Part shown: in pieces, positions 5,411 to 51,018 of the stretch
Position numbering within the stretch: position 1 is the first letter of the stretch
Layout: each line of letters starts with the position of its first letter
Assembly: GCA_016871495.1 (NCBI GenBank)
Contig: VHDF01000020.1
Location: 1-64,000 of the forward strand
Length of the DNA: 64,000 bases
Source of the DNA: Verrucomicrobiota bacterium
Lineage (GTDB): Bacteria > Verrucomicrobiota > Verrucomicrobiia > Limisphaerales > VHDF01
Direction: 5' to 3'
Notes under the pieces: model-generated
What the model was told of the DNA's origin: nothing
The model's input: only the letters and a program-made list of their open reading frames with translations
Databases searched by the model: none
Position numbers and translations under genes: made by a program

Positions 5411-5604
5411 AGGATTTCGATAAAACGCTCCCGAATCATGGCGGCGAGGCGCGACTTCCGGCAAGCCACAAAACGTGGCCTTCCAGCCTGGCGGTGCATC
5501 CCGAAGTTGTCTGGAGTGTGGCGCAGGCTGCCCAGCCTGCCGTCTCGCCGACGGCCCGGCGGGTGAAGAACCAGGCCCTTCCATGCTCTCCAGGCGCCTG
5601 GAGA

Positions 5605-5733
5605 GCCTATTTCATGCACGGGACGCCCGGTGAGGACACCGGGCCTACAAACACGGAGGCAGTCGAGATTGTAGGCCGCGTGCCCTCACGCGGCGCACTG
5701 TCGCGGATTCAAGCTCAGTATGAAATATGCGGG
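5605..5733. repeat. Family-2 palindromic intergenic repeat, copy 1 (~130 bp, REP/MITE-like)
   Basis: Near-identical to 37599..37729 (about 85-90% identity). Termini are inverted (tatttcat...atgaaata) and there are internal hairpins (cccggtg/caccggg; ggcctacaa/ttgtaggcc). Confidence 0.6.
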
Positions 5734-5875
5734 CTAGTCCCTTCGTCGCCCCGCAGGCTGGGCAGCCTGCGAAACAGCAGACAGGGCTGCCTGCGTGACC
5801 AGGACAACCCGGTCACCGACAACCTCTTGATGCACCGCCGGCGTGGCCATGCCAAGCCCGGCGGAGGGATCCGGT

Positions 5876-7308: not shown

Positions 7309-10300
7309 TCAATGCTTGGTCAGAGTTTCGTCGAGATTGAGGAGCACGCGCGAAGCGACCGCCCATGCCGCCGCGTCCCGGGGGGTGGTCTTTTCGGGAA
7401 GCGAGGCTCGCCGGGAAGGGTCGCCGGTGGCGAGTTCGTTGGCATTCAGCCAGCCTTCGGAGATCTTCTTCCGGCGGGAATCCAGGAGTTCCAGCAACGC
7501 TTGTTTTTCGGAAGGACGCGGGGCGCGTCCGACGCAAAGTTGGTACGCGTAGTCGGCTCGCCGGGCATCCGTGGCACCGCCTTCACGGAGGATGCGCAGC
7601 GCGAGGGCTTGCGAAGCTTCGACAAACACCGGTTCGTTCAGAGAAGCAAGCGCGGCCAGCGGCGTGTTGGAGCGGGGCCGGCGGGCGCAGGATGTGTCGG
7701 CGTTCGGAGCGTCAAATGTGGAAAGCGCGGGATCCGGCATCGACCGCTTGCGAAACACATAGAGCGACCGGCGGTAACGCTCCGGTCCCTGCGCTGGAAT
7801 CCAGTAGTCCATTCCGAAAAAATTGAAATCCAGCACGTTTTGAGGCACCGGGGGAAAAATGCTTGGTCCTCCGATGCATGGGGAAAGCAATCCTGAAGCG
7901 GCGAGGGCGATGTCGCGGATCACTTCGGCCTCGGCACGGAAGCGTGGCCCGCGCGCGAGCCACTGGTTGCCGGGATCCTTTTCCTGTTGTTCGGGAGTGA
8001 CGCGGGAGGATTGGCGGTAAGTGGCCGAGGTCACGATTCCCCGGATCAGCTGTTTATGGCTCCAGCCTTTTTCCATGAAATCGACCGCCAGCCAGTCGAG
8101 CAATTCCGGGTGAGAGGGCTCGGCTCCGCGCAATCCGAAATCTTCCGAGGTCTCGACCAAGCCGCGTCCGAAGAGGGCCTGCCACACCCGGTTCACGGCC
8201 ACGCGGGCGGCGAGGGGTGAGCGTTGGTCCACGAGCCATTGCGCGAAAGCCAGTCGGCGGGGAAGGTTGCCGGGTTCGATCGGATGCAAAACCGCGGGCA
8301 CCTGAGGACGGACGGTTTCTTTCGGGCGGTTCCATTGCCCGCGATCGAGGCGTCTTGTTTCGCGTGGGTCTTCGGGGCCGCGCTCGGCGAGGTGGAGGAT
8401 CGAGGTGACAGGGTCCGGATAGGGCTTCCAGGCGGCTTCGGCCTCTTCGTTGAATGATTTCAGTGCGGGGACGGAGTGGCGCCAGGCCGCGAACAGGGTG
8501 CGACGTTGTTTGTCGGTGCGCCTGGCTTCGGGGACGCGCAGGGCGAGGATCGCCGCGTAATCGACAGGCGGAGCCGAAGGATGGGGATGAGTGGTGGTGG
8601 AGAGACGGAACCTTCCGACCATGGTGTTTTTGTCCCCGTTGTTGTCCCCGCCATGATTCATGCGCAGCGAAAACTTGAGTTTGGTGCCGCGTGGAAGCGT
8701 TTGCGGCGTTTCAAATTGAACGACGGCGACGGACTCGGTGTGGCGCCGGCCTCGTCCGCGATCCGCGCGCCAGCCCGTCAGGTCGTTGGTGTCGATCAGA
8801 TAAGCGACCGGACCTCGCCGGCGCTTGCCATCCTTGTCGAGCGACTTGTTGCTCCATTCCGGCTCCATCGAGCCATCGGGCTCCGAGAAATCCGCGGTGG
8901 CTTGGGCGAGTCGAAGCGCGGTCCATTGGTTGCTGCCGGGCCTTTTCGCCTCGACGATGAGTTCGGAGAGTGCCCAGGTGCCAAGAAAGCTTCGGCCCGG
9001 GCCGTCGTAGGGCAAATCGCCGTGCGTGAAGATCTCCAATCGCAACCCTGTGATGTTCTCCATCGCCGGTTGGGCGATCATGTACACGTCGCCAGAAACG
9101 GTGCGGTGTCCCAAGGTCAGTATGGAGCCATCCGGGAGGGTGGTGGGATGGTTCAATTCAGACGTGGAATGGAGATCCTCCGCCTCGATCACTTTCCAAT
9201 CGTACCGGTCGGAGGTATCCAAGACCTGCTTGCCCCAAGCGTCGAGTTCAGCAGCCCAGTGCGGACGCGACTCGCGGACACGTCGGTCGACATCGTCCAG
9301 CGTGGCCTGGAGTTTGGCGATGCGTTCCTGTTGCTCGGAGTTATAAACGCGGGACTGAGCGTCATAGCTGTTGTTGATGAACGAGAAGAGTCCGTAATAC
9401 TCCTCGTGCGAGATGGGGTCGAATTTGTGGCTATGGCATTGGGCGCATTGCAAAGTCAGGCCAAGAACGCTTTTCCCGAGCGTGTCCATGCGGTCGAAAT
9501 TGCCCTCCATCCGGAACTCTTCGGGAACGATGGCGCCTTCCTCGTTGATCATGCCGTTCCGAAAGAAGCCGGTGGCGATGAGTTGATCCTGCGTGCGTCC
9601 GGGCAGGAGGTCGCCGGCGATCTGCTCGACGATGAACTGGGGATAGGGCAGGTCACGGTTGTAGGCTTGGATGACCCAGTCCCGCCACGCCCACTGCTCG
9701 CGCATCAGGTCTTTTTCGTATCCGTTGGAATCCGCGTAACGCGCCGCGTCCAGCCATTGCCTCGCCCATTTCTCTCCAAAGTGCTCACTCGCCAGCAGGC
9801 GGTCCGCCAGGGATTCGACGGCGGTCCCGAGGTTCTTCCGGGCTTCGGAGACAAAGCGGGCGGTTTCCGCGGGCGAAGGAGGCAAGCCGATGAGGTCGAG
9901 GTAAAGGCGACGGGCCATTTGTTCAGGGGAGGCGGCGGGAGAAGGCCGGAGACCTGCTTTCGCCAGGCGCGCCTGAACGAAATGATCGATGGCGGCGGAG
10001 CTGTTTTGTTTTAGACGGGAGGGCAGGGGGCTCTTGATGGGGGATTCGAAAGCCCAATGTTTGGAGTAGGGGGCGCCTGCGGCGATCCATCGACGCAGCA
10101 GTTCGGTGTGCTGGCTTTTGACCGGATGCTTTTCGCCGGTGGGAGGCATGACGTCGTCCGTGTCGGTGGTGAGAATGCGTTGAAGGAGGGCGCTCTTCTC
10201 GGGATGGCCCGGGACGATGGCGGGTCCATCCGATTTGCCGCCGTGGAGGGCATCGTCGCGAAGATCGAGGCGCAGTCCGCCCTTGCGGGCTTTTTCGTCG

Positions 10301-10434
10301 GGTCCGTGGCACGCGAAGCAATGGTCGGCGAGGATGGGTCGAATTTCGCGCGAGTAATCAGGCGCGAGAGTCGACGCGAACGCGGAGGACCGGTCCATCA
10401 GCAGGACGGCCAGGATCATACAGAAGGCGCGCAT
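7309..10434 (-). CDS. PSCyt1 + DUF1549 + DUF1553 (PSD1) planctomycete-type cytochrome c domain protein
   Basis: Signal peptide MRAFCMILAVLL, then CFACHGPDEKARKGGLRLD (the PSCyt1 haem-binding motif), followed by DUF1549 and DUF1553 regions. The ORF track extends the N-terminus to 11037, but that stretch is non-coding and contains the MITE. The true ATG is at 10434. Confidence 0.85.
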   Translation of the reverse strand: MRAFCMILAVLLMDRSSAFASTLAPDYSREIRPILADHCFACHGPDEKARKGGLRLDLRDDALHGGKSDGPAIVPGHPEKSALLQRILTTDTDDVMPPTGEKHPVKSQHTELLRRWIAAGAPYSKHWAFESPIKSPLPSRLKQNSSAAIDHFVQARLAKAGLRPSPAASPEQMARRLYLDLIGLPPSPAETARFVSEARKNLGTAVESLADRLLASEHFGEKWARQWLDAARYADSNGYEKDLMREQWAWRDWVIQAYNRDLPYPQFIVEQIAGDLLPGRTQDQLIATGFFRNGMINEEGAIVPEEFRMEGNFDRMDTLGKSVLGLTLQCAQCHSHKFDPISHEEYYGLFSFINNSYDAQSRVYNSEQQERIAKLQATLDDVDRRVRESRPHWAAELDAWGKQVLDTSDRYDWKVIEAEDLHSTSELNHPTTLPDGSILTLGHRTVSGDVYMIAQPAMENITGLRLEIFTHGDLPYDGPGRSFLGTWALSELIVEAKRPGSNQWTALRLAQATADFSEPDGSMEPEWSNKSLDKDGKRRRGPVAYLIDTNDLTGWRADRGRGRRHTESVAVVQFETPQTLPRGTKLKFSLRMNHGGDNNGDKNTMVGRFRLSTTTHPHPSAPPVDYAAILALRVPEARRTDKQRRTLFAAWRHSVPALKSFNEEAEAAWKPYPDPVTSILHLAERGPEDPRETRRLDRGQWNRPKETVRPQVPAVLHPIEPGNLPRRLAFAQWLVDQRSPLAARVAVNRVWQALFGRGLVETSEDFGLRGAEPSHPELLDWLAVDFMEKGWSHKQLIRGIVTSATYRQSSRVTPEQQEKDPGNQWLARGPRFRAEAEVIRDIALAASGLLSPCIGGPSIFPPVPQNVLDFNFFGMDYWIPAQGPERYRRSLYVFRKRSMPDPALSTFDAPNADTSCARRPRSNTPLAALASLNEPVFVEASQALALRILREGGATDARRADYAYQLCVGRAPRPSEKQALLELLDSRRKKISEGWLNANELATGDPSRRASLPEKTTPRDAAAWAVASRVLLNLDETLTKH

Positions 10435-10905
10435 AGATGGTGCCCGAAATTTAGGGTGCTGAGGTCCTGTCTGTCGAGGCTCGATGGGAGGCTCCGGCAG
10501 TTTGGATGTGGCCGCTTGGGGAGATCGTCGAGCGAAAGTGAGCAACTTGAACGGGAGGGCGAGGTCATGTAGGTTGCGGCATGCGACCGACATCACGAGA
10601 CGTTTCATTTCAGACACGGAGTGGCGATTTTCTTTTCCACCGATTTGAATTCCGGGTCCCTGGTAACGCGATCGGCCTCCTTTTCCTTCGCCAGGGCGGC
10701 TGCGAAAGCGTCGGTCAGAATGATTTTGAAGCGGGCTCTCACATCGGCGGCGGTGTTGGCCAGCGCGCGGTTCGTTGTGGAAGCAGGGGACGAGCGCGAA
10801 GCTGTCGAGCATTTTAGCGGTCCTTTCGATCCGCCTGTTCCCGCTCTGCTTCTTGTGCTCCGACCACGCTTTGGTCAATGGGTTCTCGCACGGCCTGCGT
10901 TCGAG

Positions 10906-11039
10906 CGGTGCATCCCGATGTTGCCGGTGATGCAGGTAGGGCGCGTCCGTCCCGGCGCGCCGCCGGAGCATGATGTTTTGCATCCAGTGGGCGGCGGGCT
11001 GGGACAGGCCCGCCCTACCAACAACATCGGGATACACGG
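10906..11039 (-). mobile_element. 134-bp MITE, copy A (inverted relative to copies B and C)
   Basis: Terminal inverted repeats cggtgcatcccgatgttg ... caacatcgggatacacgg. Flanked by a perfect 9-bp direct repeat gcgttcgag (10897-10905 and 11040-11048). About 95% identical to the copies at 13808 and 49978. Confidence 0.75.
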
Positions 11040-11089
11040 GCGTTCGAGAACCCCAAAGTATCCATCTTGATATCAGCGCTCATCGCTTC

Positions 11090-11378
11090 GAGTCTCACTT
11101 CTCGTCCAAAGCCAGTAAATACTTGATATATAATAGATTAAAGTGTTTGTCAGACTCTCCCGATCCGGACTGACTGCATCCTCTTTTGGGCGACCACTCC
11201 AGGGCTTTACCTCCGGCGCGCCTGCCCTCGCGGGCTCTGTCGTTGATTCCCGGGGCGGATGCTCGCGGAATGCGGCCCTGGCTCAATGGCAGCTTTCCCG
11301 GTGTGGGACGTTCCGGTACCGCGGGGAGGTTTGCCCGGCGTGCGTTGAGGTTGATCGTAATAATGGACTTAATTTGTA
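11090..11378 (+). promoter_or_regulatory. AT-rich putative promoter region upstream of the nfeD-flotillin operon
   Basis: A locally AT-rich stretch in a 62% GC context (aaatacttgatatataatagattaaag; gatcgtaataatggacttaatttgtaatg) immediately 5' of the 11379 start. Confidence 0.25.
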
Positions 11379-12007
11379 ATGTCCAAGCTCGGCTGGGACG
11401 CTATCATCCCACTCAATTCGATGAGCACGCTCGCTTTGATTGAATCGGTGGGAGGTTGGTGGAACGCACTTACACTCGCCAAGCAGCTCTTTTTTGGCAT
11501 CGGGTTGCTCGCCTCTCTGGTTGCGCTGGTGATTGCCGTGTTGTCCATGATTGGCATGGAGCACCACGATGGCCTTGATGTCGCCCGGGGAGTGGACCAT
11601 GGCGGAGGAGGCGTGTTCTCCATCAAACCGCTGACCGGCTTTTTTCTCGGCTTCGGCTGGGCGGGTGGATTGGCCCTGGACGGTGGTCTGACCCTCGCGG
11701 CGGCCATCGGGGTCGCGGTTCTTTCGGGTCCCTGATTTTAGCGATGGTCGTGGCCATGTTTCGCGCCATCTATAGTCTCAAAAGCGATGGCACCTCGCGG
11801 ATTGATGACGCGGTGGGCGTGGTGGGCACCGTGTATGTCACGATTCCGCCTGCCCGTGCGTCCGGGGGCCAGGTGATGGTTCCATTCAGCGGGCGTTTGC
11901 AAACGCTCGCTGCGATCTCCGCAGCCGGCAAGCCCATCCCGAGCGGTGAGAAAGTCAAGGTTCTCAGCGTGGTGGACACGCATACCGTACAAGTGGAGGC
12001 ACTCTAA
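11379..12007 (+). CDS. NfeD-like (YuaF-type) membrane protein. Its N-terminal TM part and C-terminal OB-fold part are in different frames, so there is an apparent frameshift near 11722.
   Basis: ORF 11379-11735 (frame 0) encodes 2-3 TM helices. ORF 11744-12007 (frame 2) encodes an NfeD-type beta-barrel (VGVVGTVYVTIPP...GEKVKVLSVVDTHTVQVEAL). Adding one T to the run in 'gttctttcggg' gives a continuous ...VAVLFGSLILAMVVAMF... reading. The NfeD-flotillin gene order is conserved across bacteria. Confidence 0.5.
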
Positions 12008-12041
12008 ACCGACTCTGTTTCGTTCCCACCCCATCCTGATC

Positions 12042-13540
12042 ATGATCCAAGTCATCGCCATTTCCATCGTCGTCGTTTTCCTGGTGCTCATCGCGATCAT
12101 CCTGATTTCGCGTTACCGGATGTGCCCTCCTGATCGAATCCTGGTCGTGTTTGGCAAGCTGGCGGACGGGGTTTCCTCAAAATGCTATCATGGCGGATCG
12201 ACTTTTGTGATGCCATTTTCCAGAGCTACAGCTACCTCGACCTGACGCCCATCAACATCGAGATTGAGCTTCGGGGGGCGCTTTCCAGCCAGAACATTCG
12301 CATCGATGCGCCGGCCTCCTTTACCATCGGCATCTCGACCGAACCCGAGGTGATGCAGAATGCCGCCACGCGTCTCTGGGGCCGCACCATGGATGAGATT
12401 CAGCAACTGGCTTCCGAGATCATCATGGGACAAATGCGCGTCGTGTTTGCCTCCATGAGCATTGAGGAGATCAACAGCGATCGTGAAAAGCTGATTTCGC
12501 TCATTACCAAAGGCGTTGAGGTTGAGCTCCATAAAGTGGGTTTGCGGATGATCAACGGCAACATCCGCGACATCAAAGATCACTCCGGTTACATCGACGC
12601 GCTGGGGAAGGAGGCTGCGGCGAAAGCGATCAACGATGCTCAAATCAAGGTGGCGCAGGAAAATCAGCGGGGGGCGATTGGGCGCGCTGAGGCTGAGCGT
12701 GAACAGGCCATTCGCGTGGCCAACGCCCAAGCCGAGGCGAGAAAGGGAGAAAACACCGCGCAGGTGGTCATTGCCAAATCCAATGCGGACCTGGCGACTG
12801 AGCAAGCCGAAGCCAAGCGCCGCACGGAGGCTGCGCAGATGGTGGCCGAAGCTCGCGCGCTCCAGGAATCCTACAAAGCCCAGCAGGAAGCCGAACTGGC
12901 CCGGGCCGCGCGCGAGCAGGCGCAGCAACAGGCCGATCAGATCGTAAAGGCCGAAATCGAAAAGGAGCGACTTCGCATTGATTCCGAGGCCAAGGCCGCA
13001 CAAGCCAGAATTCTCCAGGAAGGCCAGGCGGCAGCCTACATTGTGCAGAAGGATGCGGAGGCCCAGGGCATCAGGCGTGTGGCCGAAGGTGAAGCGCAAG
13101 GAATCAAGGCCAAGCTCGGCGCGGAGGCGAGCGGAATTCAGGCCAAGCTGTCCGCCGAGGCGGAAGGCACACGGGCTTTGCTTGATGCCAAAGCGCAGGG
13201 GTTCGAGAAACTTCTGAAAGTTGCCGAAGACGCTTCCGGCGCCACGCAGCTCCTCATCGCCGAGAATATTGTGCGCATCGCGGAGATCCAAGCGGGGGCG
13301 ATCAAGGGGCTGGCCTTCGAGAAAATCGTGGTGATGAACGGCGGGGTTTCCGGCTCCGGGCCCGGCCAGTTCGTGCAGGATTTGTACAAGGGAGTCTTGC
13401 CCGTGAACGAGATTGCGAAAAGCGTCGGACTCAACCTGCCCTCGTTCCTCGGGCAGTCGTCCGAAGGAGAGGCCCCGGCGCAAACTCCGAAGCGAGAAGC
13501 GCCCAAACCGGGGAGCGAGCGCAACCCTCCCAGCGCCTGA
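12042..13540 (+). CDS. Flotillin (SPFH/band-7 domain, FloT/YuaG-like), with an apparent -1 frameshift near 12213
   Basis: N-terminal TM segment plus SPFH start (MIQVIAISIVVVFLVLIAIILISRYRMCPPDRILVVFGK...GGSTFVMPF) in frame 0, ending at 12245. The SPFH core and the coiled-coil EA-rich tail (QSYSYLDLTPINIEIELRG...) are in frame 2 from 12182. A 5-T run instead of 'ccattttcc' would give the uninterrupted ...FVMPFFQSYSYLDLTP.... Confidence 0.75.
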
Positions 13541-13807
13541 GTCATCAAGAGGCCGGTGGATTGACAGCAGTGCATCCATAGGTTGTCGGTGAAGCGCGTG
13601 GCAGCGCTTGGGGCGCGGCGTTCACGCCGCTTCAAGGCGTGGCTTCTAAAGGGCATAGCCGGTTCAACGGGCAAGCGTGCTGCCCGGGCGATGGCATCCA
13701 CCCACGGTGGGCCATGGAGTGGGAGGAGATCGCCGCGGCAGGTTGGCGCGAGCGGAAGCGCCGTGAACGGGGCGTCCCGACATCGAGCGGATGCGCCGGA
13801 CTTACAG

Positions 13808-13941
13808 CCGTGTATCCCGATGTTGTTGGTAGGGCGGGCCTGTCCCAGCCCGCCGCCCACGGGATGCAAAACATCATGCTCCGGCGGCGCGCCGGGACGG
13901 ACGCGCCCTACCTGCATCACCGACAACCTCTGGATGCGCCG
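13808..13941 (+). mobile_element. 134-bp MITE, copy B
   Basis: Left TIR ccgtgtatcccgatgttg. The right end is diverged (caacctctggatgcgccg). Flanking 9-bp direct repeat gacttacag / gactttcag (13799-13807 and 13942-13950). Confidence 0.7.
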
Positions 13942-14056
13942 GACTTTCAGCTCCACCCCGGTTTGGTGTTGTCATTCGGCGGCAGCCGCTCTAAGATGAG
14001 AGTAGAAACCCCGATTCACGCGAATGGTTCCAACCGCCCCGCTTTGACCTTGAATT

Positions 14057-15370
14057 ATGCGTATCTCCCCAGTCTCACGCCGTCTTTTCCTTGGCAGGGC
14101 CGCTTTGGCCGTCTCGGCCCCTTTGATTCTCCCTTCGCGTGTGTGGTCCGCGGCCGTTTCGCCCAATGACCGCATTCAACTCGGCTTCATCGGAATGGGC
14201 ACCCAGAATCGCGGGTTGATGTCCGGCTTCCTGCGGACACCGCAGACGCAGACGGTGGCGGTTTGCGATGTTGATCGCACGCGGCGGCTGGCGGCGCAGA
14301 CGGTGGCCAAGGATCATTTTGCCAAACAGGGGGGAGGAGGTGGCTGTGAGGCGTATGAGGATTTTCGGGAGTTGCTGGCCCGCCGGGATGTGGATGCCGT
14401 GGTGATCGCAACCCCCGATCATTGGCACGCGCTGATCAGCATCGCAGCGGCGAGGGCGGGCAAGGATATTTACTGTGAAAAGCCCCTCTGCCAGTCGATT
14501 CACGAGGCTCGCGCCATGGTGAAGGCTGTCCGCAAGCACAAGCGCATTTTCCAGACAGGCTCCATGCAGCGGTCGAGCAAGGAATTTCGCGTGGCCTGCG
14601 AGCTCGTTCGGAACGGCGTGATCGGGAGAATCTCCACGGTTGAAGCCTCGGTGGGCGGTCCGGGCATGCCGTGCGATTTGCCGGGCGAAACTCCGGAGCC
14701 GGGTTTGAATTGGGACCTGTGGCTGGGTCCTGCCCCTTCGCGGCCTTATCATTCCGAGCTGAGTCCCCGCGGCGTGCACAAACACTTCCCAAACTGGCGG
14801 CGTTATCGTGAGTACGGCGGGGGCGGGGTGACGGATTGGGGCGCGCATCATTTCGACATTGCCCAGTGGGGCTTGGGGATGGACCAGAGCGGTCCGGTGG
14901 AAATCACCCCAGCGTCCGATCCCAAGGCATCCTTTGGCGTGCGCGCCCGTTATGCCAGCGGAGTGGAGTTGGTGCATTCGAACGGCAACGGCGTGGTTTT
15001 CCATGGGAGCGAAGGCAAGATCTCGGTGGACCGCGGCAGGTTTTCCTTGTGGCTGGGCTCTCAACTGAAGTCGGAGTCGGCCTCCGAATGCGAAGGCATT
15101 GCCCGGGAACTGTTGAAGTCGAATGCGGAACGGCTTTATGCGAGCACGGATCACAAGGCGGATTGGTTGAACAGCATCCGCACCCGGAAGCCGCCTATTT
15201 GCGATGTGGAGGTGGGTGCTCGGACGGTGACGGTCTGTCATTTGATCAACCTCGCTTATTACCACGGCCAGCGCATGGTATGGGATCCCAAGCGGGAGCG
15301 GTTTGCCGGGGGCGCCGGAAACGCCGCCTGGCTGGATGTGCCCTACCGGGGGAACTGGAAACTGGGTTAG
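14057..15370 (+). CDS. Gfo/Idh/MocA family oxidoreductase with a TAT signal
   Basis: MRISPVSRRLFLGRAALAVS is a twin-arginine signal. Rossmann-fold start (GFIGMGTQNRG), DAVVIATPDHWHA and KDIYCEKP motifs. Confidence 0.85.
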   Translation: MRISPVSRRLFLGRAALAVSAPLILPSRVWSAAVSPNDRIQLGFIGMGTQNRGLMSGFLRTPQTQTVAVCDVDRTRRLAAQTVAKDHFAKQGGGGGCEAYEDFRELLARRDVDAVVIATPDHWHALISIAAARAGKDIYCEKPLCQSIHEARAMVKAVRKHKRIFQTGSMQRSSKEFRVACELVRNGVIGRISTVEASVGGPGMPCDLPGETPEPGLNWDLWLGPAPSRPYHSELSPRGVHKHFPNWRRYREYGGGGVTDWGAHHFDIAQWGLGMDQSGPVEITPASDPKASFGVRARYASGVELVHSNGNGVVFHGSEGKISVDRGRFSLWLGSQLKSESASECEGIARELLKSNAERLYASTDHKADWLNSIRTRKPPICDVEVGARTVTVCHLINLAYYHGQRMVWDPKRERFAGGAGNAAWLDVPYRGNWKLG

Positions 15371-16761
15371 GCCAGGATTTCCTTCAACACGCGCCCGGAG
15401 ACGTCGGTCAGGCGGAAGTCGCGGCCGCCAAAGCGGTAGGTCAGCCGCTCATGGTCCAGACCCATCAAGTGCAGAATCGTCGCATGGTAGTCGTGGACGT
15501 GACAGGGACGGTCGACGATGTTGGCGCCGAATTCGTCCGTGGCGCCATAGGTCATGCCTCCCCGCACCCCCGCGCCCGCGAGCAGTGACGTGAATGCCTT
15601 GGCGTAGTGGTTGCGGCCTTTGCCATTGCCTCCATCGCTCCAGGGCGTGCGCCCGAACTCGGTGCAGATGGCCACGAGGGTTCGTTCCAACAAACCGCGC
15701 GCCTTCAAATCGAGCAGAAGGGCGGTGATGGCTTGATCGACCCGCTTCGCTTTCGGGCGGTGCGTTTCCATGTCCCCGTGGGAATCCCAGTTGTCGTGCG
15801 AACCCGTGTCGATGATTTCCACGACGCGCACCCCGCGCTCGATGAGGCGCCGGGTCATGAGGCATTGCCAGGCAAACGAACGGTTGTCCCCGGGCGAGAC
15901 TCCATAGAGTTCGAGATCGCGAGGGGATTCGCGGCTGAGATCGAAGACCTCCGGAGCTTCCTTCATCATGCCCCGGGCGATATCGAAACTCAGGCTGCGG
16001 GCAGCCAGACGGGCATCCTCAGCCCGGGTTTGGGCGTGGGTTCGATTGAGTTCATCGAGCATCTGTTGCTCGAGTTCGCGCAGTGCGACGGGCTTGGGAG
16101 GCGGATCGAGATCGGGAATGGGCTTCGCGCCCGGCGCCAGCCGGACGCCCTGGTGCGCCGCGGGAAGGAAGGCGGCGTCCCAGACCTGAGCCCCGGCGTA
16201 GGGCAGGTGTTCCGCAAAGACGAGATAGGCGGGCAAATTGCGATTGAAAGTGCCCAATCCCATGCTCAACCACGCTCCCAGACTCGGCATGGGCACTGTA
16301 GCCGAGCCGGTGTGCATCGCCAGCGTGGCTTGGAAGTGCTCGACGATATCCGTGTGCAACGACCGGATCACACACAGGTCATCCGCGACGCTTCGAAGCC
16401 GGGAGAAGAGCTCGCTGATGGGCAGGCCGGACTGGCCGCTGGATTTGAACTCGAATTTGCTGCCCAGGAGGGGAAGCGGACGCGCTTCGTCGGGGCGCAG
16501 TCCAAATGCCGGAATCGGCTTCCCATGCATCGCGTTCAATCGAGGTTTGGGATCGAACGTGTCGAGGTGGGAGAACCCTCCGGTCAAGAACAAGACAATC
16601 ATCTGATCGGCTTGAGCGGGGAAATGGGACGGAGAAGGCGCCATCGGATGTCCCCGATGCAGCGCCGCCGCTTGGGCAAAGCGGACGGGTGACATGGCGC
16701 CCAGCAGTCCAGCCTGGGCACAAGCTCCTAAGAACCGTCGTCGGGAGAGGTCAATCCACAT
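15367..16761 (-). CDS. DUF1501 family protein with a TAT signal
   Basis: MWIDLSRRRFLGACAQAG signal. HFQATLAMHTG... and CTEFGRTP...DHH DUF1501 motifs. The start was trimmed to the ATG at 16761. Confidence 0.85.
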   Translation of the reverse strand: MWIDLSRRRFLGACAQAGLLGAMSPVRFAQAAALHRGHPMAPSPSHFPAQADQMIVLFLTGGFSHLDTFDPKPRLNAMHGKPIPAFGLRPDEARPLPLLGSKFEFKSSGQSGLPISELFSRLRSVADDLCVIRSLHTDIVEHFQATLAMHTGSATVPMPSLGAWLSMGLGTFNRNLPAYLVFAEHLPYAGAQVWDAAFLPAAHQGVRLAPGAKPIPDLDPPPKPVALRELEQQMLDELNRTHAQTRAEDARLAARSLSFDIARGMMKEAPEVFDLSRESPRDLELYGVSPGDNRSFAWQCLMTRRLIERGVRVVEIIDTGSHDNWDSHGDMETHRPKAKRVDQAITALLLDLKARGLLERTLVAICTEFGRTPWSDGGNGKGRNHYAKAFTSLLAGAGVRGGMTYGATDEFGANIVDRPCHVHDYHATILHLMGLDHERLTYRFGGRDFRLTDVSGRVLKEILA

Positions 16762-37449: not shown

Positions 37450-37598
37450 CGGACGGGACGGATGGCGATCCGGGCCGCCGCTTCATGGGTTGGTTGGATC
37501 TGGAGCATTGAGCGCTGGAAGGGCGATTCTTTAGGACAAAGCTGCGCGGAGAACAAACGGGATTGTTCCAGGCTTCAAGATTTTTGCAAGGATGGTAG

Positions 37599-37729
37599 CC
37601 CGGATATTTCATGCACGGAACGCCCGGTGAGAACCCCGGGCCTGCAAACACAGAGGTCGTCGCGATGGTAGGCCGCGTGCCTCACGCGGCGCACTGTCGC
37701 GGATTCAAGCTCAGTATGAAATATCCGGG
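37599..37729. repeat. Family-2 palindromic intergenic repeat, copy 2
   Basis: Perfect 14-bp terminal inverted repeats cccggatatttcat / atgaaatatccggg. The internal core is almost identical to 5605..5733. Confidence 0.6.
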
Positions 37730-37804
37730 CCAAGAGGGATATTCGTGCTGGTGATGTTTGGAATCCGGTCTTGTTTCGGCCTCAGCCCGGGGTATGTTTC
37801 CATG

Positions 37805-44790: not shown

Positions 44791-46263
44791 TTACGTTCCA
44801 CAGAAAGTTTGGTGCGGTGGCGATCCTTCCGGTGGCGGAGTGGTGTATTCATCGGGGAGGGTGGAGTGGTAGTCGAAAGGACTCGCCAGGGTGCGAAGGA
44901 GGGCTCGAACCGGTTCCCAATCGTCGTGTTTCACCGCGGCATCGAGGGCCTTCTCCACGACCCGATTTCTTGGAATGACGCGCGGATTGTGGCTGCGCAT
45001 CAGGGCGATGACTTCCGTCTTGGGCTGGGGTTGGCGCGCAAGCCGGTCTTTCCATCGAGCATGCCACTTGCTGGAACCAAGGTCGCCAAAGGAGAGGCTT
45101 TCCGCAGGCGCGTCTGCAGTTAATGCCGCGAATGTGTTCGTGAAGTCCGCCCTCGCTTTTTCCATCCCGTCGAGCAGGTCTTGGGCGAGAAGAGCGTCGT
45201 CACTCTCCTGCGTAAACAGCCCCAGCTTCGCGCGCATGCCTCGCTGCCAGCATTCTGTGAAAAGGGGGGCGAAACGGTTCAGGATGGACTGGGCGCGGGA
45301 GAGCGCATTCTCCGAGTCCTCGTCAAGGAGGGGCAAAAGAGTTTCCGCCAATCGGGCCAGATTCCATTGCGCGATCGCGGGCTGATTGCCAAAAGCGTAG
45401 CGTCCGCCGTGATCGATCGAGCTGAATACGGCCCGTGGATCATAGCGGTCGAGAAACGCGCACGGGCCGTAATCGATCGTTTCTCCGGAGAGTGCCATGT
45501 TGTCCGTATTCATGACCCCATGGACAAATCCGGCGTTCATCCATTTCGCGAGGAGCGTGGCTTGCCGTTCCATCACCTCTTCGAACAACGACTCCGCCTT
45601 GTTTTCGGAGTCCAGGCGACTGGGGAAGTGCCGTTGAAGAGTGTAGTGGACAAGAATCCGGAGGGTGTCGAAGTCATGGTGGGCGACGACCCACTCGAAC
45701 GTGCCCACGCGGATATGGCTGGAAGCAACGCGGGTGAGCACCGCGCCGGGCAGGGGGCCTTCCTGGCGATAGACGGTTTCGCCCGTCGCGGACACAGCGA
45801 GGCTGCGCGTGGTGGGAATGCCCAGGGCGTGCATGGCCTCGCTGATCAGGAATTCCCGGATCATCGGACCGAGTGCGGCGCGGCCGTCACCGGACCTTGA
45901 AAAGGGTGTGCGACCGGAACCTTTAAGCTGGATGTCGAAGCGATCTCCTTCCGGCGAGATCTGTTCGCCTAGAAGCAGGGCGCGTCCGTCACCCAGTCCG
46001 GTGAAGTTTCCGAATTGGTGTCCTGCATAGGCCTGGGCGAGGGGCAGGGAACCTGGTGGCGCCTCGTTGCCGGCAAAAAGGGCGTCGGTCCCCCGGAGGG
46101 TATCGGGGTCAAGACCCAGGGATTCGGCCAGGCGGGTGTTGAACAGGACGAGCTTGGGCTCCGTTACGGGGGAAAGCCGCCATCGCTGGTGCAAGAGGGG
46201 CGGCAGCGTGGCGTAGGAATTCTCGATCCTCCAGCCGGCATCGGAGGGAGGACGAATGGTCAT
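44791..46263 (-). CDS. selO: Protein adenylyltransferase SelO (YdiU/UPF0061)
   Basis: AGHQFGNFTGLGDGRA, LKGSGRTPFSRSGDGRAALGPMIREFLISEAMHALGIPTT, and HGVMNTDNM. Confidence 0.85.
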   Translation of the reverse strand: MTIRPPSDAGWRIENSYATLPPLLHQRWRLSPVTEPKLVLFNTRLAESLGLDPDTLRGTDALFAGNEAPPGSLPLAQAYAGHQFGNFTGLGDGRALLLGEQISPEGDRFDIQLKGSGRTPFSRSGDGRAALGPMIREFLISEAMHALGIPTTRSLAVSATGETVYRQEGPLPGAVLTRVASSHIRVGTFEWVVAHHDFDTLRILVHYTLQRHFPSRLDSENKAESLFEEVMERQATLLAKWMNAGFVHGVMNTDNMALSGETIDYGPCAFLDRYDPRAVFSSIDHGGRYAFGNQPAIAQWNLARLAETLLPLLDEDSENALSRAQSILNRFAPLFTECWQRGMRAKLGLFTQESDDALLAQDLLDGMEKARADFTNTFAALTADAPAESLSFGDLGSSKWHARWKDRLARQPQPKTEVIALMRSHNPRVIPRNRVVEKALDAAVKHDDWEPVRALLRTLASPFDYHSTLPDEYTTPPPEGSPPHQTFCGT

Positions 46264-46356
46264 GGAACTTCGCACGGCAAAAACTAGCGAGGAAATGCAG
46301 GGTCGGCAATGACAGGGCGGTGCATCCGCAAGTTGTCGGGGCACGCCGATTGGGAG

Positions 46357-49300
46357 CTACTCCTCGGAAGTGACAATCAAAACCCCGCGCATCAGTCGCC
46401 AATGGCCGGGAAAGGTGCAGAGGAAAGGGTAGGAGCCGGGATTTCGGGGTGCTTCGAAGCGCAATTCGGCGCGGCCTTTCGGGTTGACCAAGGGCGTGGC
46501 CGCGAGAATCTGAGGTGAATCTGGCACATAGGCCTTGGCCATGCCCTGAGGATCAGCCGCCATGCGATCGGCCAAGGCTCCGACCTCTTCCCCGGCTCCC
46601 GCCTGCACGAGCACCCAATTGTGGACCATGAGATCGGGATTCTCGAAGACCAAGCGAACTTTCGCGCCCGCCTTGACCCGAAGTTCCTTGGGAGAGAATT
46701 GGAGTCCGGCCGCGGCGCGAACCGTCAAGGCACCGCCTCCCGCCAATTGGGTCTCGGTCCAGGACGAGGCCATGGCCGCGAGATCGGCGGTTTGTCCGGG
46801 CAGAGTGACGGTGGCCAAGCGTTGTCCGACAGGATCGAACAGATACGCCGGCGGCGGACGCCCCTGTAATTTCCGATATTCGATCTCCAGCAAGTTCAAT
46901 CCCGGTTTTAGCTCGAACTGGGCTTGTTGCTCGCTGCTCCATTGGGAATCGTGAGAAAGCACGGTTTCGCCGTTGACACGCACGTCGAGAAAACTGTGCT
47001 TGGTGGACAGGATGGCCGGCTGCGCGGACTCGGAGCGAACCAAGGTTCGAAACACGCCTGGACCTAGCCGTTCGCCCGACGAATCGCTGGTGTCGATGGT
47101 GACGGGTGGACGTCGCGCTTCTTCGCCCAGGAACTGCCAGTAGCGAACACGAGTGTCTGGGGAGGTTTCGAGGACCGGCACGCTGCGGCCTTTCGCGGGT
47201 TTGGTGCCCTGTTTGAGATCTTCGAGCATTCTCAACACATCCGTCTGGGTTGGGCGGAGGGCATGGAGAGCATGCTCAACCTCCGGATGACCTGGACGCA
47301 AATGGGCGACGGCATCGACGACCTCCATTTGGACACGAGGATGCGTGTCGCCTGCCATCGTGTGGAGCCGTTCGACGAGTTGAGGAATGCGGTCGAATTG
47401 ATAACGCGCAAGCCGCACTGCCGCGGCGCGATGGTGGGGCGATGCCGAGCGTTGAAGCCGGTCCAGCAGGGCGGGACGGGTTTCGTGGAAGCTTTCGAGA
47501 ACGAACAAGGCTTCCAGCACCGATTGATCCTCGTCGAGATGGCGGGCTGCCCATGCCTCCACATCGGCGATCACGGCCCGGCCTTGGCGGCGAAGCTCAA
47601 GCCGGGCGTGTTTGCGCACCAGATCCTGCGGATGGCCCAGCAATTCCAGCAGATCGGAGACCGACCCCCCGAGAATGCGGGGCCAATTCGTGACGACCGG
47701 ACGGCCTTGGTGCGTGATTCTCCAGATGCGGCCTTTGACATGGTTCCAGCGCGAGTCTCGCATGGGATGTTGAGCGTGTCCGATGATGGCGCTGCTGAAA
47801 TCGGAGACATAAAGCGCGCCGTCGAAACCGAACTCCACGTCCACAGGACGAAACGCCGCGTTCGTTGAACTGACGAGGTCGAGCCGCCCGCGGGCCCGGG
47901 CCATGCCCTGATTCAAGTCGAACTGGGTCATGGAAACCAGATAGGGTCCGACGCAGGCGGCGGAGGCGATGCCTTGCTGATACTCGGGGGGAAAGTTTGG
48001 ACTCGAAATGCTGGCGGCGGCGCTGCCTTTGCCGTAGCCCAGAATCTTGGCGTGCGCGAAGGGATGATAGATTCCGAGCGGCGTCCACGTGAGCGCCAAT
48101 CCGTCGAGGACCAGTCCATCTCCATACATCTGAAAGATATTGCCCGTTCGGTCGAAGGTGATTTTCCATGGATTGGGCGTAATGCTCTGCCATTCGGATT
48201 CGATGCGGTTCGAGCGCGGGTTGAGGCGGTAGGTGGTGGCGTCCACACCTCGGACGACGCCCCAGGGCGTTTCGAATTGGGATCGATGGAAGACGCCATC
48301 CGAGAACCACACGTTGCCTACCGGGTCGGTGGCGATCATGCCCCCATGGTGAGAATCGGTGAGATCGAGTCCGCGAAGCCGTTCGTGGCGGCGGTCGGCG
48401 CGGCCGTCACCGTCGGTGTCTTCGAGCAGCCAGTGTCGCGATTGTTCAGAAACGAGGACCCCTTCGGAGGTAAACGCGATGCCGTCAAGCGCGTCGAATC
48501 CTTCAGCGAAGACCGTCGATCGGTCGGCTTTTCCGTCCCGATTGGTGTCTTCAAGCACGAGCAGTTTGTCCAATTGCGGCTGGCCTGGAATGGTGTGAGG
48601 AAAGCTGGGCATGGTGACGACCCAAAGCCGTCCACGGGCGTCGAAGGCGATTTGAACCGGTGCGCGCAGGTCGGGAAACTCCTCGTCGGAGGCGAAAAGA
48701 TTGACCCGGTAATCGGGAGCCACTGTGAACTCGGCTTGGGCTTCGGACGCGGACTTGACGACTCCGACGCTGTGAGTGGATCCACCGGAGGGAGGAACGG
48801 GGGGCGGGGCCAGCAGAATTGGGGGTGCGTTGGAGAAACGGGTGGAGGGATTCACGGAAAGTTCATGAACGAGGGCCTCCGCCAGGTCGATGCGGCGGAA
48901 GTAGAGAGGCATCTCGGCGTCGCGTTCTTCCGGTCGTTTGCGCTGGCCGTAGTAGAGAATACCGTTCTTGGGACGGACCGTTTCAGCGACGAAATGGGCG
49001 AGCCGGGCGGCGGCGGGGCGGACTTCATCCAGTCTCTCGGGAGCGATGCGACGAAGCAGCACCGTGTCGAGGCAGGACTCGGCGATGACCCGGGCCATCC
49101 TGCGATTCCCCGCGTCGTTCAAGTGCAATCCGTTCAGGGTCAGTTTGGAGGGACTCGATGAATAGGCGGTTTGGCTGGCACGGAAAAGGTCGATGAACAA
49201 GGCGCGGCGTTGCTCCGCGGTTTGGGCGAGGACCTGACTGTAGCGGGCGAGATCTGCGTTGCGAGTGGAAGCGTCGGGTCCGGTCCAGCCGGGTTCGAGG

Positions 49301-49809
49301 GCGGTGGGGGCAAGCAGAACCCAGCTCGCGTTGGGGTGGAGGCGTTGCAACTGGTCGAGCATTTGATGGAGATGCGTACGGAACGTTTCCAGGCCGGAGA
49401 CTCCGGCAAAGGATTCGTTTCCCCCGAAGGCGAGGAAGACCACCTGCGCGGGCCAGCGGGCGAGCATGGCTCGAAGATGATCCGCGTAGCCTTCCGCCCG
49501 GAGGCGGTGGCCGACTTCATCTCCCGTCCAGGCGAGAGAACGAAAGCGGAGCTTCAGGGCCGGGTTTGCGAGGTGGAAGAGCGACTGCAGCTCGCCGTTT
49601 TCGAGCAAACATTCGACCAGTGCGCCTCCGTAGAAAACGAGAGTGTCCTGGGGTTGGAGGGCGATCCGGGGACTCGCGGTCGCTGGCCCCAAGGGGGCGG
49701 GTTGCCGGCTGGATTCCTTTTGGGCATCGTTGTCCGCCGCTTGGCCGCAAAGGAAGATGGACGTCAACATCGCGCCGAGGAGGGGCAGGAAATGGAAGCG
49801 ATGGTGCAT
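46357..49809 (-). CDS. Large secreted multidomain protein: SGNH/GDSL-hydrolase-like N-terminus, beta-propeller (glucose/sorbosone-dehydrogenase-like), HEAT-like repeats, and a C-terminal azurin-like cupredoxin domain
   Basis: Signal peptide MHHRFHFLPLLGAMLTSIFLCGQA. The C-terminus (HNWVLV...YPFLCTFPGHWRLMRGVLIV) reproduces the azurin type-1 copper ligand set (His, Cys-x2-PGH-x3-Met). The start was trimmed from 49962 to the ATG at 49809. Confidence 0.7.
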   Translation of the reverse strand: MHHRFHFLPLLGAMLTSIFLCGQAADNDAQKESSRQPAPLGPATASPRIALQPQDTLVFYGGALVECLLENGELQSLFHLANPALKLRFRSLAWTGDEVGHRLRAEGYADHLRAMLARWPAQVVFLAFGGNESFAGVSGLETFRTHLHQMLDQLQRLHPNASWVLLAPTALEPGWTGPDASTRNADLARYSQVLAQTAEQRRALFIDLFRASQTAYSSSPSKLTLNGLHLNDAGNRRMARVIAESCLDTVLLRRIAPERLDEVRPAAARLAHFVAETVRPKNGILYYGQRKRPEERDAEMPLYFRRIDLAEALVHELSVNPSTRFSNAPPILLAPPPVPPSGGSTHSVGVVKSASEAQAEFTVAPDYRVNLFASDEEFPDLRAPVQIAFDARGRLWVVTMPSFPHTIPGQPQLDKLLVLEDTNRDGKADRSTVFAEGFDALDGIAFTSEGVLVSEQSRHWLLEDTDGDGRADRRHERLRGLDLTDSHHGGMIATDPVGNVWFSDGVFHRSQFETPWGVVRGVDATTYRLNPRSNRIESEWQSITPNPWKITFDRTGNIFQMYGDGLVLDGLALTWTPLGIYHPFAHAKILGYGKGSAAASISSPNFPPEYQQGIASAACVGPYLVSMTQFDLNQGMARARGRLDLVSSTNAAFRPVDVEFGFDGALYVSDFSSAIIGHAQHPMRDSRWNHVKGRIWRITHQGRPVVTNWPRILGGSVSDLLELLGHPQDLVRKHARLELRRQGRAVIADVEAWAARHLDEDQSVLEALFVLESFHETRPALLDRLQRSASPHHRAAAVRLARYQFDRIPQLVERLHTMAGDTHPRVQMEVVDAVAHLRPGHPEVEHALHALRPTQTDVLRMLEDLKQGTKPAKGRSVPVLETSPDTRVRYWQFLGEEARRPPVTIDTSDSSGERLGPGVFRTLVRSESAQPAILSTKHSFLDVRVNGETVLSHDSQWSSEQQAQFELKPGLNLLEIEYRKLQGRPPPAYLFDPVGQRLATVTLPGQTADLAAMASSWTETQLAGGGALTVRAAAGLQFSPKELRVKAGAKVRLVFENPDLMVHNWVLVQAGAGEEVGALADRMAADPQGMAKAYVPDSPQILAATPLVNPKGRAELRFEAPRNPGSYPFLCTFPGHWRLMRGVLIVTSEE

Positions 49810-49977
49810 GCGGAAGACCGTATCCGCGTCCGTGGCGGGGGGGCAAGCCGGCGGATGGTGAGCGTGGGAGATCGTTGGGATGGATGGCCTGGTGAGGGAT
49901 GCCGCGGGTTTGGCCGGAGGCCGGGGCGCGGCACGACTTTCGGCCGGGGACTGGAGAGGCAACCCCGAACTGCGGAT

Positions 49978-50111
49978 CCGTGCATCCCGATGTTGTTGGT
50001 AGGGCGGGCCTGTCCCAGCCCGCCGCCCACGGGATGCAAAACATCATGCTCCGGCGGCGCGCCGGGACGGACGCGCCCTACCTGCATCACCGGCAACATC
50101 GGGATGCACCG
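49978..50111 (+). mobile_element. 134-bp MITE, copy C
   Basis: TIRs ccgtgcatcccgatgttg ... caacatcgggatgcaccg (17 of 18 bp complementary). Perfect 9-bp direct repeat actgcggat on both flanks (49969-49977 and 50112-50120). Confidence 0.8.
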
Positions 50112-50174
50112 ACTGCGGATCAGGGACAAACGCGGGGGTTGTCGAGGCGGGCTTTGTTCTGTAGAATGCAAAGC

Positions 50175-50804
50175 ATGAAACGCATCCTGCTTTCCCTTGT
50201 GGCCGCGCTTGCCGCGGTTTCCTTCATTGACGCCGCCTCGAACGAGGAAGGATTTGTCTCCATCTTCGACGGCAAGACATTCAACGGCTGGAAGATGGCG
50301 AATGAGAATCAAAAGACGTGGCGGATTGAGGACGGCGCCATGGTGACGCGGGGTGAGCGTTGTCACGTGTTTTACGTGGGGGACGAAAAGCCGTTCAAGA
50401 ATTTCGAGCTCAAGATCGATGTCATGACCGAGCCCGGATCGAATGGGGGGATTTACTTTCACACTCGTTACCAGGAAACCGGCTGGCCGAAACAGGGTTT
50501 TGAGTGCCAGGTCAACGTGAGCCAGGGCGACTGGAAAAAGACCGGCAGTCTTTACGATGTGGTGAATCTGGCGAGCACTCCGGCCAAGGATCGTCAGTGG
50601 TGGACGCAGCACATCACGGTGAAAGGAAACAAGGTCACGGTTCGCATCGACGGCCAGATTGTTCTTGAATACACGGAGCCCAAGGGGGCCGTGGCCGGAA
50701 CGGATTTTACGCGGAAATTGAACGAGGGCACGTTTGCCTTGCAGGCGCACGACCCGAAGAGCGTGGTGCATTTCAAGAATATTCGCGTCAAGCGGCTCGA
50801 TTGA
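50175..50804 (+). CDS. DUF1080 (3-keto-disaccharide hydrolase-like, LamG/jelly-roll) domain protein, secreted
   Basis: Signal peptide MKRILLSLVAALAAVSF, and FDGKTFNGWK...WRIEDGAMV...FELKIDVM...NGGIYFHTR, the DUF1080 pattern. Confidence 0.75.
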   Translation: MKRILLSLVAALAAVSFIDAASNEEGFVSIFDGKTFNGWKMANENQKTWRIEDGAMVTRGERCHVFYVGDEKPFKNFELKIDVMTEPGSNGGIYFHTRYQETGWPKQGFECQVNVSQGDWKKTGSLYDVVNLASTPAKDRQWWTQHITVKGNKVTVRIDGQIVLEYTEPKGAVAGTDFTRKLNEGTFALQAHDPKSVVHFKNIRVKRLD

Positions 50805-51018
50805 CGAGTCGTTCCAAGCTGGCATGAAGCCCGAGCCACGCCGTGTGGCCCGGGCTTTTTTGCGTCAGGCATCGAAGAGGAGAGCCGGGTTGGAGGCGGT
50901 CCATTTGCACCGCAAGCTGTCTGTGGTAATACGACAACCCGGTCACCGACAGCCTGTAGATGCACCGGGTTGGAGGCCGACCTCCATCAATGGCTTTCTT
51001 TTCCCCGAGAGCTGAGGT

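Follow-up and report, generated by a model that had tools for sequence, protein, structure and literature searches.

MITE-134, a 134-bp mobile element of Verrucomicrobiota with termini shared by an ISKra4-like insertion sequence and a fixed distance to promoter-like motifs

Copy A of MITE-134 and related elements in the window

The 64-kb window (the whole stretch of DNA that was analysed) contains a PSCyt1/PSCyt2/PSD1 gene, whose ATG is at 10434, and to the right of it two small nfeD-like ORFs followed by a flotillin (Band_7) gene. The PSCyt1 domain begins 39 residues past the ATG, after a signal-peptide-like start and a CFACH haem motif, and a promoter scan called a promoter-like site at 10477-10448 on the PSCyt gene side. 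A 134-bp element, MITE-134 copy A, lies between these genes, in the intergenic position that an earlier note on this DNA had given, with the PSCyt gene on one side and the nfeD-like/flotillin genes on the other. Its features are as follows.

10906..11039, minus strand: MITE-134 copy A, with the left end of the family consensus at 11039 and the right end at 10906
11017..11039, minus strand: left terminal inverted repeat, CCGTGTATCCCGATGTTGTTGGT, identical at 22/23 nt to the left end of the IS in metagenome contig L042 (described below)
10906..10927, plus strand: right terminal inverted repeat, read inward CGGTGCATCCCGATGTTGCCGG, the first 18 nt matching the L042 IS exactly at its right end
10897..10905, no strand: left target-site duplication GCGTTCGAG, read from the sequence
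11040..11048, no strand: right target-site duplication GCGTTCGAG, read from the sequence

Copy A reads cggtgcatcccgatgttg...caacatcgggatacacgg, and its target-site duplication (TSD) is a perfect 9 bp, gcgttcgag on both sides; the sequence of the element and the flanking repeat at 10897-10905 and 11040-11048 match exactly what the earlier note had read. The terminal inverted repeats (TIRs) of MITE-134 are approximately 18-23 nt long. Copy A folds into a near-perfect hairpin of -88.9 kcal/mol (z -10; the z scores of the two strands are -10 and -7.6). MITE-134 has no coding capacity, and the ORFs that cross it are only artefacts of read-through from neighbouring genes. One of them, ORF 7309..11037, begins at a GTG within copy A and reads through the whole element. 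Its spurious N-terminal extension had been put down to copy A; the element does supply the GTG start and 44 codons (132 nt), but the other ~470 of its 603 nt belong to ordinary sequence beyond the element that lacks stops.

Between the PSCyt gene and copy A, the minus strand at approximately 10612-10760 encodes the C-terminal remnant of a PIN-domain (VapC-like) protein (Pfam PF01850, E 9e-6, profile positions 73-119 of 120), whose intact N-terminus is absent; it represents a toxin gene that has decayed. A vapB antitoxin remnant across the copy A target was considered and rejected, with no Pfam support even at E = 10. To the right of copy A, the nfeD-like function is split over adjacent ORFs in different frames, 11379-11735 and 11744-12007, one for a 118-aa membrane part and the other for an 87-aa part that weakly matches the C-terminal region of NfeD (E 0.019). 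Independent metagenome contigs likewise have both genes called.

A repeat search of the window found three 134-nt copies (A, 10906-11039, inverted; B, 13808-13941; C, 49978-50111), all of them intergenic (3/3). Copy A showed 99% complementarity to C and 96% to B. When the three copies were aligned with 50-nt flanks, identity ran to the termini and stopped exactly there, which upheld the limits set in the earlier note. A 16-nt terminal motif, searched with up to 3 mismatches, occurred 12 times in the window against 0.75 expected. The two other copies and the nearest relative of copy B are listed here.

13808..13941, plus strand: MITE-134 copy B, with an 8/9 TSD, gacttacag (13799-13807) and gactttcag (13942-13950)
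49978..50111, plus strand: MITE-134 copy C, with a perfect TSD ACTGCGGAT (actgcggat) at 49969-49977 and 50112-50120
13568..13798, plus strand: older MITE of a sister family, 231 bp, with related termini and its own 9-mer gattgacag at 13559-13567

The 9-mer of the 231-bp MITE matches the TSD of copy B at 7/9 positions; one target was therefore struck twice.

Other elements with termini of this kind are scattered through the window. A 346-bp element at 5492-5837, with termini of the same type and a 7/9 duplication (ccagcctgg / ccggcgtgg), is a copy of a sister MITE family of approximately 218 bp (also at loci L029, L048, L071 and L072). It is interrupted at approximately 5604-5737 by a palindromic repeat of about 128 bp that belongs to another family, has ends like GGATATTTCATGC and occurs a second time at approximately 37597-37733. 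A 71-bp mini-derivative of the 218-bp family at 50897-50967, flanked by the perfect 9-bp duplication GGTTGGAGG (50888-50896 and 50968-50976), adjoins the upstream side of a TPR gene that starts at approximately 51019. A solo terminus of the 231-bp sister family, CGGTGCATCCGCAAGTTGTCGGGG, extends from 46317 to about 46350, its similarity ending after approximately 30 nt, in the narrow space that separates two minus-strand ORFs, 44791..46344 and 46357..49962. In some copies (window 13917-13941; L014, approximately 270-290; L060, 749-882), the terminus variant CATCCAGAGGTTG replaces CATCCCGATGTTG at either end. As CATCCAGAGGTTG is typical of sister families, its presence suggests exchange between MITE families, possibly by recombination or conversion.

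Copies B and C distort gene calls as well. ORF 49899..50804, a hydrolase, is lengthened by 92 codons through copy C, its true ATG being at 50175; ORF 13639..14169 is an artefact caused by copy B; and in a JGI contig (L019, 2726-3181) a 151-aa 'gene' is called across copy B.

Further copies and a related IS in metagenomes

The window is matched at 99.96% identity by a JGI contig from Lake Tanganyika, and the homologues of the flotillin carry the names Lacunisphaera, Nibricoccus and Opitutaceae; to judge by these matches, the host is a lake Opitutaceae bacterium (Verrucomicrobiota). The terminal motif was then scanned for in genome and metagenome collections, where it matched coding-sequence coincidences in unrelated phyla, many Verrucomicrobiota sequences and further 134-bp copies. 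At least 20 further copies of MITE-134, 93-100% identical to copy A, were found at unrelated loci in Lake Tanganyika metagenome contigs, one of them (L038) being an independent copy with 100% identity to copy A. Perfect 9-bp TSDs flank the element at 13 loci (11 in metagenomes, and copies A and C in the window), with 13 different sequences, and 8/9 TSDs flank it at four more, copy B included. Across 20 distinct copies, mean column identity was 98% and the differences were scattered single changes. Near-identical copies in this pattern are the mark of a short mobile element that spread in a recent burst. Copy A is small and non-coding, is bounded by TIRs and 9-bp TSDs, belongs to a family of many copies and shares its termini with an IS; the earlier note had called it a MITE, and that reading is supported.

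Unoccupied sites were sought in three ways. The 25-mer reconstructed as the empty site of copy A, CACGGCCTGCGTTCGAGAACCCCAA, gave no match in metagenomes; the reconstructed empty sites of all copies, compared by BLAST with the fetched loci, gave artefactual matches only, to neighbouring related termini; and orthologous loci reached through flotillin homologues gave no usable intergenic comparison, the nearest relative, at 88% protein identity, being too distant for it. Metagenome contigs of the same population end at MITEs. In L019-L021, compared with window 10989-15912, the assemblies stop within copy A and close to the 13568 sister element; since independent assemblies break at these repeats, the repeats fragment assemblies.

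Five matches of the terminal motif in genomes from outside Verrucomicrobia were dismissed as coding coincidences (desaturase and haem O synthase-like genes). Further MITE families of approximately 163, 161, 144 and 90 bp, with the same termini and unrelated interiors, were seen in other Verrucomicrobiota MAGs and in metagenomes (loci L001, L011, L013, L016 and L017, of MAG CAMAUY01; L039, L041, L062 and L063; L030 and L055; L043 and L046). The label of MAG CAMAUY01, Akkermansia muciniphila, looks wrong.

An IS of autonomous type was found in metagenome contig L042 (195-2390, 2196 bp, termini CCGTGCATCCCGATGTTGTTGGT). Its termini are identical to those of copy C at 23/23 nt and to those of copy A at 22/23 nt, and 23/23-nt identical termini are also shared with the IS in L073-L077 and L094. 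An asymmetry at position 2 (the left end has CCG, the right end CGG) is common to the IS and the MITE. The L042 IS carries two overlapping ORFs, for a 304-aa DruA/DUF4338-like protein (Pfam DruA, 3.7e-27) and a 414-aa transposase. The best model for the transposase was NCBIfam ISKra4 (NF033572; E 2.4e-56, near full length), at 191.7 bits against a curated cut-off of 205; the ISH6 and ISLre2 models scored far lower, and identity to annotated ISKra4 transposases was approximately 27%. Its relatives number in the hundreds, mostly on contigs of about 2.2 kb, and the few that are named by source bear the names Verrucomicrobia/Verrucomicrobiae. The fetched full-length IS relatives keep the pair of DruA-like protein and transposase, and four of them (L076, L079, L081/82 and L083) have perfect 9-bp TSDs (CCCCGCCGA, TGGCGCCAC, ATCCCCGCG and GGTCAGGGC). 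The 2.2-kb Verrucomicrobiota IS is the probable parent type of MITE-134, as far as termini and duplications indicate.

The DruA/DUF4338-like ORF (L042 207-1121; also L074, L075, L077, L079 and L081-L092) was always present, and it shares a 4-nt overlap with the beginning of the transposase ORF. Outside such elements, DruA is known from Druantia, a defence system. A role of the DruA-like protein in target choice is one possibility.

No autonomous IS was detected in the 64-kb window or the fetched Lake Tanganyika contigs by tblastn and further transposase look-ups, and the matching IS copies come from metagenomes other than Lake Tanganyika. As neither the window nor those contigs yielded one, the supply of the enzyme in trans is inferred rather than observed. 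A transposase fragment beside a solo terminus in L003 was judged by eye to be an unrelated, stop-ridden, integrase-like remnant.

Position of the insertions relative to promoter-like motifs

The flanks of 22-23 independent insertions were aligned, and offsets were counted from the element end, so that the 9-bp duplication plus 18 nt places the start of a hexamer at 27 nt. The match to TTGACA peaked at offset 27, with a mean of 3.6/6 against 1.40 +/- 0.22 at other offsets (z ~10). A hexamer matching at 4/6 positions or more stood at exactly this offset in 13 of the 22 insertions (other offsets: mean 1.35, maximum 5), and one matching at 5/6 or more in 9/22 (other offsets: mean 0.08), while approximately 40% of insertions had no hexamer of at least 4/6 at exactly 27 nt. 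The score for a -10-like box (TAnnnT-type) after a spacer of 16-18 nt was 3.39 against 2.0 +/- 0.25 in controls. Full-length IS copies have the hexamer at the same 27-nt offset, and a -35 peak at 13-17 nt was absent from the aligned flanks of both MITE insertions and IS copies. The motifs next to the three copies of the window are as follows.

13969..13997, plus strand: promoter-like TTGTCA-17-TAAGAT, 27 nt past copy B, called by an independent promoter scan, upstream of a GFO/IDH/MocA gene (ATG 14057)
50139..50167, plus strand: promoter-like TTGTCG-17-TAGAAT, 27 nt past copy C, called by an independent promoter scan, before a 3-keto-disaccharide-hydrolase gene (ATG 50175)
11067..11072, plus strand: -35-like TTGATA, 27 nt from one end of copy A, toward nfeD/flotillin, with GAGTCT as the best -10
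10873..10878, minus strand: -35-like TTGACC, 27 nt from the other end of copy A, toward the PIN remnant and the PSCyt gene, a good -10 being absent

The hydrolase ATG at 50175 follows the -10 by approximately 7 nt, and its transcript is thus probably leaderless, as predicted from this spacing. At both hexamers beside copy A, the promoter scan called no promoter. As both lie at 27 nt, the target of copy A is midway between two divergent -35-like boxes.

Approximately ten of the 134-bp insertions are stacked: an older element, whose termini are related, ends exactly 9 bp away, and in every one of these cases this older element is on the promoter-distal side. Copy B thus sits between the promoter and the 231-bp sister MITE, the order being promoter, 18 bp, gactttcag, copy B, gacttacag, sister MITE (13568-13798) and gattgacag. 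Repeated integration into one promoter-defined 9-mer would produce this stacking pattern with no further assumptions.

Proposed mechanism, alternatives and comparison with known systems

We consider it very probable that copy A is a 134-bp MITE that is mobilised in trans by an IS of the ISKra4 group and lands relative to sigma-70-type promoters. Its TIRs (18-23 nt) would be the sites of binding and cleavage by a DDE (Mutator-like, ISKra4-group) transposase, supplied in trans by an autonomous IS of about 2.2 kb with the same termini and a DruA/DUF4338-like ORF. A 9-bp staggered cut at integration would give rise to the GCGTTCGAG duplication. The target would be chosen relative to sigma-70-type promoters, as a 9-bp site 18 bp upstream of a TTGACA-like -35, and because it would be set by the promoter, insertions would fall in front of genes and not within them. 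Repeat strikes on one promoter would leave a row of elements spaced by exactly 9 bp, the youngest of them closest to the promoter, and copy A would have landed midway between two -35-like hexamers that diverge, in the space separating the PSCyt operon from nfeD/flotillin. The structure of the element, its numerous independent insertions, the termini and 9-bp duplications common to MITE and IS, and the constant distance to -35/-10-like motifs are observed directly; mobilisation in trans, the recognition of promoters as such and a circular intermediate are what we infer.

It is conceivable, and in our judgement unlikely, that the machinery of the MITE reads TTGAC at a fixed distance as plain sequence, and not promoters or RNA polymerase-sigma complexes. 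The information content of the aligned flanks is concentrated in TTGAC, and copy A is flanked at offset 27 by TTGATA on one side and TTGACC on the other, neither with a usable -10 box; both observations agree with such a reading. However, -10-like boxes at 16-18-nt spacing are enriched by approximately 5 sd over controls, copies B and C precede full promoter-like sites with genes correctly placed downstream, and promoter targeting is documented for the ISKra4 group (PMC3942029). Between sensing of promoters and of plain TTGAC, the -10 enrichment favours promoters, and copy A fits either.

Three further readings dispense with a MITE mobilised by a DDE enzyme. That the 134-nt palindrome is a selected structured RNA or regulatory hairpin (terminator, attenuator or sRNA) and not a transposon is highly improbable: the hairpin is very stable on either strand and the element is always intergenic, but the window contains no Rfam 15 family at the gathering threshold, none of 50 pairs shows compensatory changes across 20 distinct copies (the covariation score equals that of shuffles), a T-tract after the stem is absent, the element stands upstream of promoters and occurs in both orientations, and TSDs with termini identical to those of an IS require transposition. 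A REP/BIME-type palindrome spread by a RAYT (IS200/IS605-like), or a product of recombination, would agree with the GC-rich, imperfectly palindromic, multicopy and intergenic nature of the element; we hold this to be extremely improbable, given that REP elements have no target duplications, whereas perfect 9-bp TSDs flank the present element at 13 loci, and that the MITE-134 termini match an IS with a DDE transposase. The common termini of MITE and IS might finally be taken to mean that the copies arose one by one from full-length IS insertions by loss of the interior, the short form never having been mobilised. The probability of this is close to nil, as the 88-nt interior is the same in all copies and bears no relation to that of the IS, mean column identity being 98% across more than 20 loci; a common interior at that many loci rules out independent deletions.

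For the MITE that lands relative to promoters, the closest published relatives are found in the ISKra4 group, p-MULT 4 among the prokaryotic Mutator-like DDE transposases (Guerillot et al. 2014, PMC3942029). ISKra4-group elements are reported to have 9-bp repeats and termini beginning with GGGTGCA (PMC3942029, Table S1). For thirteen of them, insertion takes place upstream of sigma-A promoters, and where the inverted repeats are near-perfect both orientations occur (PMC3942029). The present elements resemble the group in the best transposase model, the 9-bp duplications, GGTGCA(T) in the termini (compare GGGTGCATTT in ISAcce1) and an extra ORF, which some members of the group have, and differ from it in that MITE-134 is a 134-bp non-coding derivative, that the matching IS transposase falls just under the NCBIfam cut-off with ~27% identity to annotated members, and that the accessory ORF is DruA/DUF4338-like. 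Verrucomicrobiota, the host phylum here, is absent from the p-MULT 4 phyla given in the main text of PMC3942029. The spacing differs as well. By the definition in Table S2, which is the one used here, and the main text of PMC3942029, the -35 box in TnGBS, ISLre2 and the ISKra4 group lies 13-17 nt from the IR-genome junction, duplication included, as against 27 nt here; promoter targeting itself is common to the promoter-targeting ISKra4 subgroup and the present elements.

TnGBS and ISLre2 share with MITE-134 DDE transposition at a fixed distance upstream of the -35, duplications of 8-9 bp and, as a proposed benefit, insertion without gene disruption. Unlike MITE-134, they belong to another transposase clade, insert in one orientation 15-17 nt from the -35 and are large ICEs or full IS. 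Circular intermediates, with ends joined by 6-10 bp, are described for two related families, IS256 and ISLre2 (PMC3942029), and by analogy MITE-134 may pass through one.

Classical MITEs such as Correia, RUP and MITEAba12 (PMC10969869) are likewise short, non-coding, multicopy and intergenic, with TIRs and a target duplication, form hairpins and are mobilised by the transposase of a related IS. They derive, however, from other IS families and are noted for carrying promoters or IHF sites, not for a fixed position upstream of host promoters. The 2024 review of prokaryotic MITEs (PMC10969869) does not mention ISKra4, ISLre2, IS256 or Verrucomicrobia. An ISKra4-derived or promoter-targeting MITE was not found in the searchable literature.

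MITEs and MULEs derived from eukaryotic Mutator elements also use Mutator-type DDE enzymes, make 9-bp duplications and prefer the 5' ends of genes. They differ in their eukaryotic hosts and chromatin-based targeting, and are likened to MITE-134 here by features, not by sequence. Repeats of 8-9 bp are common to prokaryotic and eukaryotic Mutator-type elements (PMC3942029).

Taken together, MITE-134 is a new family of a well-known kind, probably derived from an ISKra4-like Verrucomicrobiota IS and recently active; what is new is the fixed promoter-proximal landing site, with a spacing unlike that of the published cases. To our knowledge, promoter-seeking DDE transposons are rare. With its high copy number, recent activity and dozens of independent insertions at one offset, this MITE family is a natural dataset on how transposons find promoters, and the spacing, longer than published by about one helical turn, is a hint at how the integration complex is placed on promoter DNA. 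For annotation, such elements yield false N-terminal extensions and false small genes (7309..11037, 49899..50804 and 13639..14169), and repeats of the MITE-134 type break metagenome assemblies. Insertions of the MITE may also serve as a cheap promoter locator in uncultured Verrucomicrobiota, leaderless promoters included.

We tentatively propose, as a wider reading whose chances we put at a little below even, that the ISKra4 group includes a verrucomicrobial branch, the source of at least four MITE families, that this branch reads sigma-70 promoters and integrates exactly 18 bp before the -35 (27 nt once the duplication is counted), and that the DruA/DUF4338-like protein may set this spacing. 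If this is true, the MITE stacks would be built-in markers of promoters in uncultured Opitutaceae.
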